DNA of 64,000 nt from Acidobacteriota bacterium (lineage in GTDB: Bacteria > Acidobacteriota > Vicinamibacteria > Vicinamibacterales > CAVVIG01), in contig JBKPDW010000172.1 in assembly GCA_046728115.1 (NCBI GenBank), positions 454 through 64,453 of the forward strand, in the 5' to 3' direction. Made by a program: the position numbers and the translations under genes. A model generated the notes under the pieces. That model saw only the letters and a list, made by a program, of their open reading frames with translations, had not been told where the DNA came from and searched no databases. Positions 40,031 to 43,768 of this stretch are shown here, piece after piece (the stretch's first letter is position 1; every line of letters begins with the position of its first letter).

Positions 40031-43000
40031 TCACGGACGAACGGTGACCTCGTTCGCGGCCTTGGCGAAACTGGGTAGATTCGGCACCACGAACTGCAGC
40101 AGCGGACGATCGTCGACAATCACGGCCAGGTTCCCAGCCGCCGTGGCGCGCGTTGCCATCATCACTCCGTACAACCCGTCTGGCGTCGGCTGTGCGATGA
40201 AGGCATTGGTGTCCACCCCGAGCAAGGCCGCCACGAACAGGTTGTTCTGTTCCACGAACGTATTGCCGTGAACGATCGCGCTGGCAAACACGCCGTTCGC
40301 GGTGCCGTTGGGCTGCGCGAGCCGCCTCGCCAGCACCGTTGCGACACTCAACTGCGACAACTGGTTGTCGCAGAACGAGAGTTGCGCGCTGCCCGGCGTG
40401 AGCCGCAGGTTGTCGCGGGCGGCGAGCAGGCGCAGCAGGTCGGGCGTCGTCGGCTCCTCGGTGTCTCCGTAGAAACTCACCACTCCCACGAACCGGTTCT
40501 GGCTGACACGACAAGTGCCGTTGACCTCCTGGAACATTGCGGCCGTGGACGGGAACCTGGTGAGGATCTCGCAACCGGTCATGCTCACGCTCTGCGCCGA
40601 GACAATGGTCACGGCCGCCGCCCTGCTGACGTTGCCGGAGCGATCGAACAGCACGTTGGCCAGACGCACCTCATCGTTCTTCTGGAACAACAGCCGCGTG
40701 TCGCCCTCGGCGCGCATCGTCAGATCCCGAACCTCGATCGCGGCGAACGCGTCGAACGTCAACGTGCCGATCACGTTCAGCTGCGACGCGTGGCCGCAGC
40801 CATGAAGCGTGAGCCGGAACTGGTCCACACCGTTGATCTCGAATGGTGCCACGTCGTGCGTGCCCGGCAGGAAGCAGATGCACGCACTGCCGCGACCGCC
40901 CTCGAGCAGCCCGCGCAGCAGGTCGGCGGTGAGCTTCTCGAAGTCGCCGCCGATGCCGATGGTCACGTCACAGCCGCGCGTGGTAGTACTCGGCGACGCT
41001 CCGCCGAGGCTCGCATCGAAGCCGAGCCGCTGTATCACCTGTCCGGCCGGATCGATCAGATCGATGCGAACACGTTGCGGGCCGCCCGAACCGAGCTGCC
41101 AGCTGAACGCGGCCTGTCCTTGCGCATCGGTCGTGCGTGTGGCCGACCCGGCAATCGTGCCCCCGCCCTGTTCGACCGTGGCCCGGACCAGCGCGCCGGC
41201 AACGCCGTCCGTGCCGTTGACGACCTGCACCTCGAGAGGGAACGGCAGCGCGCCGCCGGCCGCCGCGGTCTGCCCATCGCCGGACACGTAGCGCAGGAAG
41301 AGCGAGGCCGTCGCGCAGAACACGATGTACTGGCCGAGTAGAGGCTCGCCATCGTCGTCGAGCAGGCTCGCGCGCACACGCTGGAACCGCGCCGGCGCTA
41401 TAGCGCCCGGACCGAGCCGCCACTCGCGCAAGGCCTGCCCGTCGCTATCGGTGACGATGTCCATGGCCGAACCGCCGCCACCGAGCGCGCCGCCGCCGCT
41501 CTCGATCTCGAACCGGATGACGCGCCCTGCAACGGGCGCGTCGCCGCGCGCCACCCTCGCAGCGAGCGGCTGCGGCAGCAGCGCGTTGGGCGCACCGTCC
41601 TGACCGTCGCCGGACACGTACAGCAGCTGCTCCGCAACGTTCCCCGGCGCGAACAGGTTGCGGCAGTCACTAACGACGGTGATCGTCCCGTCCACACCCA
41701 CTTCGACGATGGCGAGCCGGCAGTACGCGTCGGTGATGCCGGCGGGCGGACGGGTGATCGGATCCCCGTCGTCATTGCGGGGCCACTCGACGTCGGCGGT
41801 GATCGTGCGCGCGGGTATCTGCCAGTAGTCGCCGGGACGGTACTGGCCTCCGGGTCCGAAGCGCACCTGCACGCCTTCCTCGAGATCGATCCACGGACCT
41901 TCGACAATCGGCAAGACGTTGGTGCCGGCAACGGCAGGCTTGTGGTCCCAGCGGCGCAGGATCGGACGACGCGCCGGATCCTGGCCGAGCGTCCCGGTCG
42001 GCACGCCGGCGAGGACGAGCTCGAGCTCGTCGTTGCCGTCGTTGAGGTACTCGAAGAACACGCCGGCGCGATGCACGAGCTCGGCGTCATCGTCGACGAG
42101 CTCGACGCGATCGTGCACGGCCAGATCGAGGTTGGCGTCGCGGCCGCGCGCGGCAAGCCTGACCGTCGTCTGCTGCAGTCCCGCGTCGATGCTGATGCTC
42201 TCGACCGCGTATGCGACCGAGCCGTTCTCGCGCGACCACTTGAAAGTCGGGTTCGCGCCACCCTCGTGCACTTCGACGCGATACAGCTGGTTCTCGAGTC
42301 GCCGGAATCCCGCGGTGGCGGCAATTTCGCACAGGCTCGCGGCCGCCAGCTGCGGCTCGGCGCGGGCGGCAAGCACGGGCTTTTGCGCGTTGACCAGTGC
42401 ATCCCAGTCGGCGATCGTCGAGCTGCAGTTCCAGTCGAAGGGGCTCGACGGAGGCAACGGCAGCGCGCGGACCTGCGCGATGGTGCGGGCGCGTGTCGCC
42501 GTGTCGGGTCCGCCGAGCGCCACCTCGCGAATGATCGGGAGTTCGAGCGCGGAGATGTGACGCTGCCAGACGTCGAGGTACATCAGGTAGCCACCCGGTT
42601 CAAGCGGCTGCTCGGCGCCCCCGTCGGGTTGATGCCCGTACGACGCGCGCGCCTCGAGCTCGCACAGCGTGCCGTTCACGTAGCATCGGCCCGTCAAGAT
42701 CGACAGGTTGATCGCGGGCAGCACGACATCGGCGACGTCCGGCGATCCGCCGCCGATGCGCAGCGCGGCGGATCCGTCGCCGACCAGCCAACCTGGATCG
42801 CTCCCGAAGAACGACAGCGCGCGCAAGTCCGACTGCGTGCCGACGTCCTCGAGCGACCAGTTCGCGCCGCCGTCGGTGGTCCGGAGCACGACGCCGCCCT
42901 CGCCCGCCGCCCAGCCTTCGTTTTGATCGCGGAAAGCAATCCCGTACAGCGTCGCGCCCGATGGCGTGTTGCACGGCAGCCACGTCGCGCCGCCGTCCTG

Positions 43001-43768
43001 GCTGCGCACGATCGTGCCGTGCTGTCCGGCCGCCCACGCCAGCGTCGTGCCGAACACCGCGAGCGCACGCAAGTGCGCGTGGGTGCCGCTGGGAACCTCG
43101 GCCCAGTTCTGACCGCCGTCGCTCGTCGCGAGGATCGCACCACCCTGCCCCACTGCGAGACCGGCGAGCTCGTCGATGAAGCGCACCGCATGCAGCCGTG
43201 GCGCGGTCGTCTGCGCGATGCGCCAGGTGGCGCCGCCATCGCTCGTCGCGACGACGATACCACCGTCGCCGACCGCCCAGGCGTGGTCGGCATCGAACAC
43301 CGACACGCCGCGCAGCGTGCGGAGCGTGCCGGGATTCTGCGTCACCCAGCTCGCGCCCTGATTGCTCGTCTTGCGCACGAGGCCGCCGTCGCCGACCACC
43401 CAGCCGGTGCCGCCCACCTCTGCGAGCGCGCGAAGGTTGGCGGTCGTTTCGAGCTCGACGCGCGTCCAGTCGGCGCCGCCGTTGGTTGTGCGCAACAGGG
43501 TGCCATCTTCGGCAGCGATCCAGACGACGTTCGCGTTGACCGCATGGACGGCCAGCGCGTTGGTCTCGGCGACGAGCGCATAGCCGGCCGCATCCACGGG
43601 AGCGCCGCACGCGCCGATCACGTCGCGCGCCGCACGCTCGGCGCGATACCGCGTCAGGTCGGCCTGTTCGTTCCAGTCGGCGTCGGTGACGATGCGGCCC
43701 TGCTGGAGGCGCACCGAACTGAAATGGCGCGCGCGCTCGAAGGTGTCGCGGGAGAGATCGCTTTTCAT
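40031..43768 (-). CDS. Fibre/receptor-binding-like protein: DUF6519-type scaffold with an inserted BNR beta-propeller, two Ig-like domains and a C-terminal beta-helix-like region
   Basis: N-terminus is MKSDLSRDTFERARHFSSVRLQQGRIVTDADWNEQ. Six S/T-x-D/N-x-G-x-x-W motifs (TTNGGADW, TSNQGASW, TSDGGATW, TSDGGQNW, SQDGGATW, TTDGGANW) fall at about 42750-43560. The scaffold resumes with GRCYVNGTLCE...YLDVWQRHISALE...ALGGPDTATR. YVSGDGQ occurs twice. Confidence 0.8.
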   Translation of the reverse strand: MKSDLSRDTFERARHFSSVRLQQGRIVTDADWNEQADLTRYRAERAARDVIGACGAPVDAAGYALVAETNALAVHAVNANVVWIAAEDGTLLRTTNGGADWTRVELETTANLRALAEVGGTGWVVGDGGLVRKTSNQGASWVTQNPGTLRTLRGVSVFDADHAWAVGDGGIVVATSDGGATWRIAQTTAPRLHAVRFIDELAGLAVGQGGAILATSDGGQNWAEVPSGTHAHLRALAVFGTTLAWAAGQHGTIVRSQDGGATWLPCNTPSGATLYGIAFRDQNEGWAAGEGGVVLRTTDGGANWSLEDVGTQSDLRALSFFGSDPGWLVGDGSAALRIGGGSPDVADVVLPAINLSILTGRCYVNGTLCELEARASYGHQPDGGAEQPLEPGGYLMYLDVWQRHISALELPIIREVALGGPDTATRARTIAQVRALPLPPSSPFDWNCSSTIADWDALVNAQKPVLAARAEPQLAAASLCEIAATAGFRRLENQLYRVEVHEGGANPTFKWSRENGSVAYAVESISIDAGLQQTTVRLAARGRDANLDLAVHDRVELVDDDAELVHRAGVFFEYLNDGNDELELVLAGVPTGTLGQDPARRPILRRWDHKPAVAGTNVLPIVEGPWIDLEEGVQVRFGPGGQYRPGDYWQIPARTITADVEWPRNDDGDPITRPPAGITDAYCRLAIVEVGVDGTITVVSDCRNLFAPGNVAEQLLYVSGDGQDGAPNALLPQPLAARVARGDAPVAGRVIRFEIESGGGALGGGGSAMDIVTDSDGQALREWRLGPGAIAPARFQRVRASLLDDDGEPLLGQYIVFCATASLFLRYVSGDGQTAAAGGALPFPLEVQVVNGTDGVAGALVRATVEQGGGTIAGSATRTTDAQGQAAFSWQLGSGGPQRVRIDLIDPAGQVIQRLGFDASLGGASPSTTTRGCDVTIGIGGDFEKLTADLLRGLLEGGRGSACICFLPGTHDVAPFEINGVDQFRLTLHGCGHASQLNVIGTLTFDAFAAIEVRDLTMRAEGDTRLLFQKNDEVRLANVLFDRSGNVSRAAAVTIVSAQSVSMTGCEILTRFPSTAAMFQEVNGTCRVSQNRFVGVVSFYGDTEEPTTPDLLRLLAARDNLRLTPGSAQLSFCDNQLSQLSVATVLARRLAQPNGTANGVFASAIVHGNTFVEQNNLFVAALLGVDTNAFIAQPTPDGLYGVMMATRATAAGNLAVIVDDRPLLQFVVPNLPSFAKAANEVTVRP

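Follow-up and report, generated by a model that had tools for sequence, protein, structure and literature searches.

Extracellular contractile injection system (eCIS) particles are studied as programmable protein-delivery devices, and recognition of the target is the least understood step in how they work. Here, we ask what a beta-propeller is doing inside the tail-fibre gene of one such locus, whether it was inserted there and whether it could decide which target the particle engages. The locus lies in a 64,000-nucleotide stretch from an Acidobacteriota bacterium (contig JBKPDW010000172.1 of assembly GCA_046728115.1), referred to below as the window, whose numbering is used throughout. A reading of the bare sequence had identified the gene product as a modular protein of a contractile particle, serving as its fibre or receptor-binding protein; this description is upheld by the match to the Pfam family DUF6519 and by the eCIS operon in which the gene stands. 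We find that the propeller is an insertion relative to the DUF6519 family, though universal inside the immediate subfamily.

DUF6519 has been named eBAP5, one of five baseplate-anchor domains of eCIS tail fibres (Nat Commun 2026, PMC12923769). The fibre gene and its parts, with the main evidence for each, are the following.

40031..43768, minus strand: tail-fibre gene of the eCIS locus, an open reading frame of the DUF6519/eBAP5 class with an inserted propeller (Pfam DUF6519 229.8 bits, PSII_BNR 78.3 bits)
43580..43768, minus strand: N-terminal part of the DUF6519 anchor, residues 1-63 (DUF6519 profile 1-60; conserved docking peptide and a helix at residues 29-51)
42722..43579, minus strand: inserted seven-bladed Ycf48/BNR-type beta-propeller, residues 64-349 (motifs, repeats, AlphaFold2, Foldseek, profile search, alignment occupancy)
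41633..42721, minus strand: remainder of the DUF6519 (eBAP5) anchor, residues 350-712 (DUF6519 profile 260-535 at residues 463-715, plus a second stretch)
41303..41632, minus strand: first immunoglobulin (Ig)-like, Big_1/macroglobulin (MG)-like domain, residues 713-822, opening with YVSGDGQ (SGDGQ at 719) and modelled as a beta-sandwich
40994..41302, minus strand: second Ig-like, Big_1/MG-like domain, residues 823-925, opening with YVSGDGQ (SGDGQ at 829; weak Pfam Big_1 match at 833-889)
40034..40978, minus strand: C-terminal domain, residues 931-1245, the least conserved module (AlphaFold2 strand pattern, weak profile match)

The divided anchor and the propeller within it

The reading frame opens with ATG, preceded by AAAGG as a weak Shine-Dalgarno-like motif, with 23 nucleotides between the stop codon of the preceding gene and the fibre start, and encodes a product of 1245 amino acids (N-terminal sequence MKSDLSRDTFERARHFSSVRLQQGRIVTDADWNEQ) whose top identity to any database entry is 92% and for which the assembly index has no exact counterpart. 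Its DUF6519 match far exceeds the gathering cut-off of 22.4 bits and is split in parts: profile positions 1-60 correspond to residues 1-60, positions 260-535 to residues 463-715, and an additional stretch aligns within residues 340-463. The gap between the two parts is occupied by matches to PSII_BNR (Ycf48), Sortilin-Vps10 and BNR. When pieces of the fibre were excised and scored separately, DUF6519 was recovered in the N-terminal piece at 42.8 bits and in residues 340-770 at 204.7 bits; the proposal of the sequence-only reading that the N-terminus and a later segment belong to one family thus proved right, both being DUF6519/eBAP5. Residues 1-63 show an alignment occupancy of 1.0 and the lowest entropy of all regions. 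In the monomer model, the per-residue confidence score (pLDDT) falls below 50 for residues 1-31, and a helix spans residues 29-51; no other part of the family is as conserved as the first ~60 residues, and their low confidence is what a docking segment would show if it became ordered on the adaptor or in a trimer.

The segment that separates the two parts had been placed at about 42750-43560; it is present, with slightly wider boundaries of 42722-43579. The same reading had counted six S/T-x-D/N-x-G-x-x-W motifs and predicted six or seven blades, and both points hold. The [ST]x[DN]xGxxW Asp-box occurs in exactly six copies, at residues 94, 134, 175, 215, 256 and 297, with a spacing of ~41 amino acids; shuffled fibre sequences yielded a mean of 0.03 matches and a maximum of 2. 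Residues 64-348 fall in register into seven repeats of ~41 amino acids, the seventh without an Asp-box. Modelled by AlphaFold2 with 35 homologues as input (mean pLDDT 82.9), residues 1-480 give a seven-bladed propeller with four strands in each repeat and pLDDT above 90 for nearly all of residues 71-340. When this propeller model was compared with the PDB by Foldseek, the first twelve matches were all chains of Ycf48 or its counterpart HCF136, 5ojr and 2xbg among them (E 2.8e-15 to 9.4e-14; template-modelling (TM) score, normalised to target length, 0.69-0.75, with the cyanobacterial chains at 0.72-0.75; identity 18-22%), followed by the dispase autolysis-inducing protein, propellers of glycoside hydrolase family 74 (GH74) and generic seven-bladed propellers. 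A profile of the fibre subfamily likewise found Ycf48 among PDB sequences at E=2e-31. Together, the structural and profile matches therefore confirm the seven-bladed fold and a homology with Ycf48 beyond mere similarity of shape. Pfam BNR scores 33.5 bits on the excised segment.

Homology does not make the domain a Ycf48. Ycf48 binds D1 through a patch of six arginine residues (PMC10403576), and in a profile alignment to 8am5_S, where the repetitive fold leaves small register errors possible, none of the six is kept: Synechocystis R180, R196, R215, R219, R220 and R237 align to H193, G209, S227, A231, H232 and Q249 of the fibre. As this patch is absent, the fibre propeller is predicted not to work like Ycf48 and, judged from the alignment, is not a functional Ycf48; against the NCBIfam Ycf48 equivalog PRK13684 it scores 93.9 bits, under the cut-off of 326 bits. 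The two share a homologous seven-bladed propeller of ~21% identity, above the cut-off of Pfam PSII_BNR. However, Ycf48/HCF136 (PDB 2xbg, 5ojr, 8am5) is a free-standing lumenal lipoprotein, whereas the window propeller is an internal domain of a 1245-residue fibre, whose N-terminus is the DUF6519 docking segment rather than a signal peptide. The named hosts of the fibre subfamily are also unlike those of Ycf48, and include Variovorax, Pigmentiphaga, Ideonella and Azospirillum, to our knowledge not oxygenic phototrophs. The automatic JGI label for the whole fibre subfamily, ‘photosystem II stability/assembly factor-like protein’, is thus misleading.

Insertion into a loop of the anchor

Among close homologues, taken as the 120 best 90%-identity clusters (identity to the window protein 47-92%), the propeller is present in every full-length member; more than 120 homologue clusters share the architecture of the fibre. 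Four sequences (P0083, P0091, P0099 and P0116) were considered as propeller-less near relatives and rejected; they are without PF14870 only since they are N-terminally truncated fragments, and are therefore uninformative on the insertion. Further out in the family the picture is the reverse. With residues 340-770 as query, 6388 proteins were found among 1.84 billion representatives at 50% identity, and in most of the best 150 of these 6388 the residue equivalent to 354 stands at position ~70-97, straight after the conserved 62-residue N-terminus. The N-terminal 800-850-residue pieces of 139 N-terminally complete proteins, the window protein included, were then aligned with MAFFT. The length between residues 60 and 355 is below 20 amino acids in 86 proteins, 20-39 in 37, 40-59 in two, 71 in one and 293-316 in 13; leaving the window protein aside, 125 of the 138 representatives fall below 60 residues here and 12 carry an insert of ~290-320 residues. 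Column occupancy accordingly stands at ~1.0 up to residue 60, drops to ~0.09 over residues 71-350 and returns to ~1.0 from residue 361. Most members of the family have a short hairpin loop of ~10-35 residues where the window fibre has its propeller, the Pfam DUF6519 model aligns across the junction without the propeller, and the junctions are sharp, with a conserved ...GAP-x-D-x-AGF/Y... before the insert and ...L-x-I-x-x-GR-x-Y-V-x-G-x-L-C-E... after it. The alignment with DUF6519 homologues thereby confirms the insertion and sets its boundaries at residues 64-349; a propeller at the same place in all homologues is found inside the immediate subfamily only and does not extend across the family.

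Among GTDB species-representative genomes, loci with the propeller form were found in Variovorax, Ideonella, Pigmentiphaga, Pseudorhodoferax, Azospirillum picis, unclassified metagenome-assembled genomes (MAGs) of Proteobacteria and one Acidobacteriota MAG, and loci with the short-loop form in Chloroflexota, Planctomycetota, Cyanobacteria, Acidobacteriota, Verrucomicrobiota and others. On a crude unrooted neighbour-joining tree of the scaffold, the window clade of nine representatives forms a single pure branch, and four other propeller-bearing representatives, two of them Armatimonadota MAGs, are placed elsewhere. Midpoint rooting put the common ancestor of all propeller-bearing proteins at the root, and unrooted splits were analysed instead. 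Alignments of the propeller with free-standing Ycf48-related proteins slip in register because of its internal repeats, and a propeller phylogeny was for this reason replaced by pairwise scores.

Could the propeller be ancestral to DUF6519 proteins and have been lost repeatedly, so that no insertion took place? All close homologues carry it, several phyla include propeller forms, which the crude scaffold tree puts at three or more places, and both junctions lie at identical positions in all propeller-bearing proteins. Such a history, however, demands many independent and precise excisions, each leaving a short hairpin, in a family where ~90% of representatives and most phyla are without the propeller and whose Pfam model spans the junction without it; the window clade of nine is moreover one pure branch, and in other lineages a different, ConA-like domain sits at the same site. 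We consider ancestral presence scarcely credible.

That different domain was found in two DUF6519 fibres, one from a Chloroflexota MAG (L052:6001-7167) and one from a Xanthobacteraceae MAG (L056:1040-2236), which have a ~230-residue Laminin_G_3/ConA-like domain at the exact propeller junction. As a lectin-type fold occupies the same loop in other lineages, the loop of the eBAP5 anchor is therefore an insertion hot spot: the anchor tolerates a folded domain of ~290 amino acids at one defined loop, and this loop is used for at least two unrelated folds of the binding type. Modules may also move between fibres. The metagenomic protein P0124 (1319 amino acids) has a scaffold that falls inside the window clade and a 316-residue insert without Asp-box motifs, which is 43% identical to that of P0166, an Armatimonadota-type propeller, versus 28% to the window propeller; this discordance is a hint that fibre lineages have swapped inserts. 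A plausible donor pool for the inserted propeller is provided by the free-standing ‘YCF48-related proteins’ of Proteobacteria, annotated for example on plasmids of Azoarcus, Pseudomonas, Rhizobium and Caballeronia. These belong to the same propeller family (28-36% identity to the insert) and differ from the fibre in consisting of single or tandem propellers in unrelated gene contexts, for example beside RND/MMPL transporters; no fused DUF6519-propeller gene was found in the plasmid collection.

Two further observations concern the anchor. In P0128 (1478 amino acids), P0165, P0181, P0235 and P0266, extra sequence stands at a second position ~40-100 residues into the scaffold, the largest of ~540 residues in P0128, and the anchor therefore has more than one permissive site; the C-termini of these proteins differ, with a phage Collar domain, DUF6623 or CarboxypepD_reg. 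In an Acidobacteriota MAG (L015), a minimal DUF6519 protein of 475 amino acids without shaft or distal domains (L015:3421-4848) is followed ~1 kb downstream by a free-standing Ycf48-like propeller with a signal-peptide-like N-terminus (L015:5872-6891), 30% identical to the window propeller. This gene was considered as a propeller donor, and its proximity was taken as coincidence, given the opposite-strand gene that lies between the two and an identity of only 30%.

Distal modules and the role of the propeller

Beyond the anchor, the sequence-only reading had pointed to two YVSGDGQ Ig-like domains and a beta-helix-like tail, and both find support. The motif is present at two sites, and Foldseek relates the Ig-like domains to intimin D0-D1 (Big_1) and to the macroglobulin domains of alpha2-macroglobulin and C3; Big_1 was detected in 16 of 31 homologues, and a Foldseek search against viral models returned low-TM matches only, several of them to proteins with Big-1 (Ig-like) domains. 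For residues 931-1245, the model (pLDDT ~90) shows ~ten coils with a period of 23-27 amino acids, in each of which DSSP assigns three short strands. Searched on its own, this domain gave no Pfam match and no PDB sequence match; a profile search gave a weak match to the polygalacturonase ADPG2 (E=0.0066). From the model, it is probably a right-handed parallel beta-helix.

These distal modules are also the parts that change fastest. Across the 120 homologues, identity to the window protein is about equal in the N-terminus and the rest of the anchor, and falls from there through the propeller and the Ig domains to the C-terminal domain. P0039, for example, is 81% identical in the anchor, 74% in the propeller, 55% in the Ig domains and 33% in the C-terminus, and for P0112 the corresponding values are 71%, 61%, 18% and 20%. 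Many relatives of ~1140 amino acids (P0003, P0008, P0021, P0022, P0024 and others), at 80-90% identity in propeller and anchor, are without one Ig-like domain, which shows a change of copy number in the shaft. Strongest divergence of the distal modules is the usual pattern of fibres with variable specificity at the distal end.

On these grounds we favour, with modest confidence, a reading in which the protein is an eCIS tail fibre or receptor-binding protein with a DUF6519 anchor, the propeller being inserted in the hairpin loop of that anchor as an accessory, baseplate-proximal binding module and the distal part setting fine specificity. Residues 1-63 and 350-712, assigned to the eBAP5 anchor by family membership and synteny, would dock, presumably as a trimer, on the Tail_P2_I-like adaptor encoded directly upstream, with the ~286-residue propeller looped out at a hairpin; a domain on the hairpin tip would leave the anchor undisturbed because a closed propeller brings its two ends together. 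Fine target specificity would most likely lie with the Ig/MG-like domains and the parallel beta-helix because these diverge fastest and the number of Ig domains varies. The propeller itself is predicted to be an accessory binder of a conserved surface ligand, perhaps a glycan or a peptide, a role that is plausible because other lineages carry a ConA-like lectin domain at the same site, and it would engage as the baseplate nears the target, helping to commit or trigger the particle.

Several observations weigh against this reading or its parts. Variability in the propeller is found in the outer strand and in the loops of both faces (entropy 1.7 in surface loops and outer strand versus 0.7-1.1 in the inner strands), with neither a conserved nor a hypervariable face when D-A/B-C loops are compared with A-B/C-D loops, and therefore no binding face can be inferred. 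The beta-helix assignment stands on an AlphaFold2 strand pattern and one weak profile match, the Tail_P2_I assignment of the adaptor on sub-threshold Pfam matches and synteny, and the polarity of gain over loss on parsimony applied to the unrooted, crude neighbour-joining tree.

The propeller could instead serve the fibre without any target ligand, as a spacer or collar at the fibre base, as a stowing surface against sheath or baseplate before firing, or as a shield of the adaptor. Its baseplate-proximal position, its fixed and fairly conserved state in the subfamily, the want of any strikingly hypervariable or conserved surface and the loss of the Ycf48 binding patch would all suit such a role. 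Yet the ~90% of family representatives without a domain at this site assemble nonetheless, so the propeller is not needed for the anchor architecture. Where a different domain fills the site it has a lectin-type fold, and surface loops and outer strand vary as expected of an exposed domain. We judge a purely structural or regulatory role unlikely. Somewhat less probable still is the proposal of the sequence-only reading that specificity resides chiefly in the inserted propeller, which would decide what the particle targets. BNR, Ycf48 and GH74-type propellers are ligand-binding folds, the lectin-type occupant of the site can be cited here as well, and predicted fibrillar adhesins include proteins with PSII_BNR domains, whose function there was called ambiguous (PMC9210967). 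The insertion nevertheless lies near the baseplate, in the anchor, rather than distally, the propeller is kept in all full-length close homologues and diverges only little faster than the anchor, and it is the Ig and C-terminal modules that strongly diverge or change copy number between close relatives such as P0039 and P0112; published eBAP5 fibres, too, carry their binding modules C-terminally (PMC12923769). Of the notion of a specificity domain acquired by insertion, the insertion therefore stands, ~90% of representatives having the short loop, and the main specificity role does not, the propeller being fixed and co-diverging with the anchor.

Least probable of these functions, and one we would hardly entertain, is that of a BNR-type glycoside hydrolase that degrades a target surface polysaccharide in the manner of phage tailspike depolymerases. 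What speaks for it is a weak NCBIfam match to ‘F510_1955 family glycosylhydrolase’ (49.5 bits) and a structural resemblance to the propellers of GH74 xyloglucanases and to a BNR ‘putative glycosyl hydrolase’. The hydrolase match is, however, far under its cut-off of 175 bits, and the Ycf48 proteins, which are not enzymes, match far better than anything else. In GH74 enzymes the cleft that they need is formed by two seven-bladed propellers in tandem, whereas the fibre has a single one, and the GH74 entries match with one of their two propellers only, at E-values far weaker than those of Ycf48. Sialidases are six-bladed, and none is among the matches listed; the C-terminal beta-helix would in any case be the more usual site of depolymerase activity.

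If the propeller of the favoured reading does bind a ligand, the fibre would recognise its target at two levels, distally and close to the baseplate, which bears on how binding is coupled to firing. An extended form of this idea, which we put forward as doubtful, sees a natural plug-in socket in the hairpin loop that follows the N-terminal helix of the anchor. Different eCIS lineages would have placed differing ligand-binding modules there, and at least once exchanged them; the modules would form a further receptor tier close to the baseplate, and the particle would fire when this tier is engaged and not when the distal beta-helix is. In Burkholderiales-like, Azospirillum, Acidobacteriota and Armatimonadota loci the socket would be filled by the Ycf48-type propeller, in Chloroflexota and Xanthobacteraceae loci by the ConA-like lectin. 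An analogy is offered by the ‘evolved’ Dit and Tal proteins of lactococcal and lactobacillus siphophages, in which carbohydrate-binding modules are inserted in a conserved baseplate scaffold and provide a second adhesion tier beside the distal receptor-binding protein. There, as in the window fibre, the added module is of the binding type and loops out of a conserved domain near the baseplate; it is an analogy only, the scaffold folds and modules being unrelated and the particles being phages, not eCIS.

The eCIS locus and published eBAP5 fibres

The fibre gene is the last structural gene of a minus-strand eCIS operon. Its neighbours, assigned by Pfam unless otherwise stated, are listed here in the order of the operon, followed by the genes downstream of it.

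60990-62642, minus strand: sheath
59735-60556, minus strand: T4-baseplate-like protein
57664-58992, minus strand: Pvc16_N protein
55751-57667, minus strand: AAA ATPase
54238-54912, minus strand: tube
52229-52738, minus strand: VgrG-like OB spike
49046-51532 and 46086-49049, minus strand: Baseplate_J-like tandem paralogues of 828 and 987 amino acids (NCBIfam TIGR02243, 264.7 and 217 bits, cut-off 155.8; weak Pfam Baseplate_J)
43792-46089, minus strand: Tail_P2_I / Mu gp48-like gene, 765 amino acids, directly upstream of the fibre, presumed baseplate adaptor (Pfam E 0.005 and 0.0025, below cut-offs; synteny)
36072-39992, minus strand: 1306-residue protein with Glyco_trans_1_2, ConA-like (3keto-disac_hyd/Laminin_G) and Methyltransf_24 domains, starting 38 nucleotides past the fibre stop codon
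33870-35924, minus strand: eCIS_core (DUF4157) protein, 684 amino acids, a typical marker of eCIS-associated effectors, downstream of the operon
29840-30892, minus strand: sigma-54-dependent activator (Sigma54_activat and HTH_8), downstream of the operon

The TIGR02243/Baseplate_J pair, annotated as ‘putative baseplate assembly protein’, is joined by a stop/start overlap and is kept in most related loci. In ~70 of 79 related genome loci, the DUF6519 gene likewise comes straight after an adaptor gene, in agreement with the earlier expectation that a gpI-like gene precedes the family; in the window this is the Tail_P2_I-like gene with its matches below the Pfam cut-offs.

The published account of eBAP5 allows a direct comparison. 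The domain was found in loci that use Tail_P2_I adaptors, for which the adaptor role was proposed; it shares a shoulder-like substructure with eBAP3 and eBAP4, and eBAP3 fibres were likened to TssK of the type VI secretion system and Tail_P2_I genes to TssG (PMC12923769). Typically, eBAP5 is followed by macroglobulin-like shafts and pectin-lyase beta-helices, as in the example from Pseudogulbenkiania ferrooxidans with macroglobulin and pectin-lyase domains, and the fibres carry lectin or beta-helix binding modules at the C-terminus (PMC12923769). With a DUF6519 score well above threshold, a Tail_P2_I-like gene directly before it, an Ig/MG-like shaft, a beta-helix C-terminus as modelled and an eCIS core set in its locus (sheath, tube, Pvc16_N, AAA ATPase and spike, with the DUF4157 marker nearby), the window protein, as far as its sequence and predicted domains go, fits this description in every respect. 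The ‘200-aa insertion’ described in that paper is the signature of eBAP5 relative to eBAP3 and eBAP4, and not the propeller.

Fibres with a DUF6519/PSII_BNR/DUF6519 arrangement are nonetheless in its supplementary tables, for example CP022757.1_1683 (1245 amino acids, eBAP5) and IMG 650803553, in which residues 71-341 were split off as a structural domain cluster of their own (PMC12923769). The main text of the paper contains no occurrence of BNR or Ycf48 and uses ‘propeller’ only for eBAP3 fibres, and our literature search returned no paper uniting contractile injection, tail fiber and BNR; the architecture is thus already catalogued but not interpreted. The propeller-bearing eBAP3 fibres resemble the window fibre in using a propeller as a module of an eCIS fibre; as the paper describes them, they are set apart by another anchor class and another propeller type, which goes with a collagen-like shaft and lies outside the anchor domain (PMC12923769). 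New here are the exact boundaries of the insertion, the evidence that its loop is a hot spot open to alternative modules and the finding that the Ycf48 Arg patch has been lost; otherwise, the window fibre is an ordinary eCIS fibre of an already catalogued type.

Of the downstream genes, that at 36072-39992 was extended by the open reading frame lister to 40574, the added part overlapping the fibre gene. Homologues of its product stand directly downstream of propeller-bearing fibres in loci L002-L006, L012 and L013 and are absent in L007-L010 and in all propeller-less loci. With its glycosyltransferase and methyltransferase domains, it could modify the fibre or be a payload.

Neither the fibre nor the adaptor had a match in PHROGs, and IMG/VR contigs held only two weak N-terminal relatives of the fibre; the DUF6519 family is thus essentially absent from catalogued phage contigs. 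Separately, the N-terminal docking segment, residues 8-92, of several DUF6519 proteins (also L086:5983-7857) gives weak matches to the phage family DUF4815 (E 3e-5 to 0.04).

Finally, the eCIS block (36000-60000) has a GC content of 0.67-0.71 versus 0.61-0.66 in the left flank (1-30000). The flank gene at 8744-10369 belongs to the ‘acido-empty-quinoprotein group A’, with named relatives in MAGs of Vicinamibacterales and other Acidobacteria at 75-79% identity, and the fibre has its best named relatives, at 73-74% identity, in a MAG of Variovorax and one labelled Bradyrhizobium. The contrast in GC content and the differing relatives of flank and fibre suggest that the eCIS island was acquired horizontally or that the contig is chimeric.

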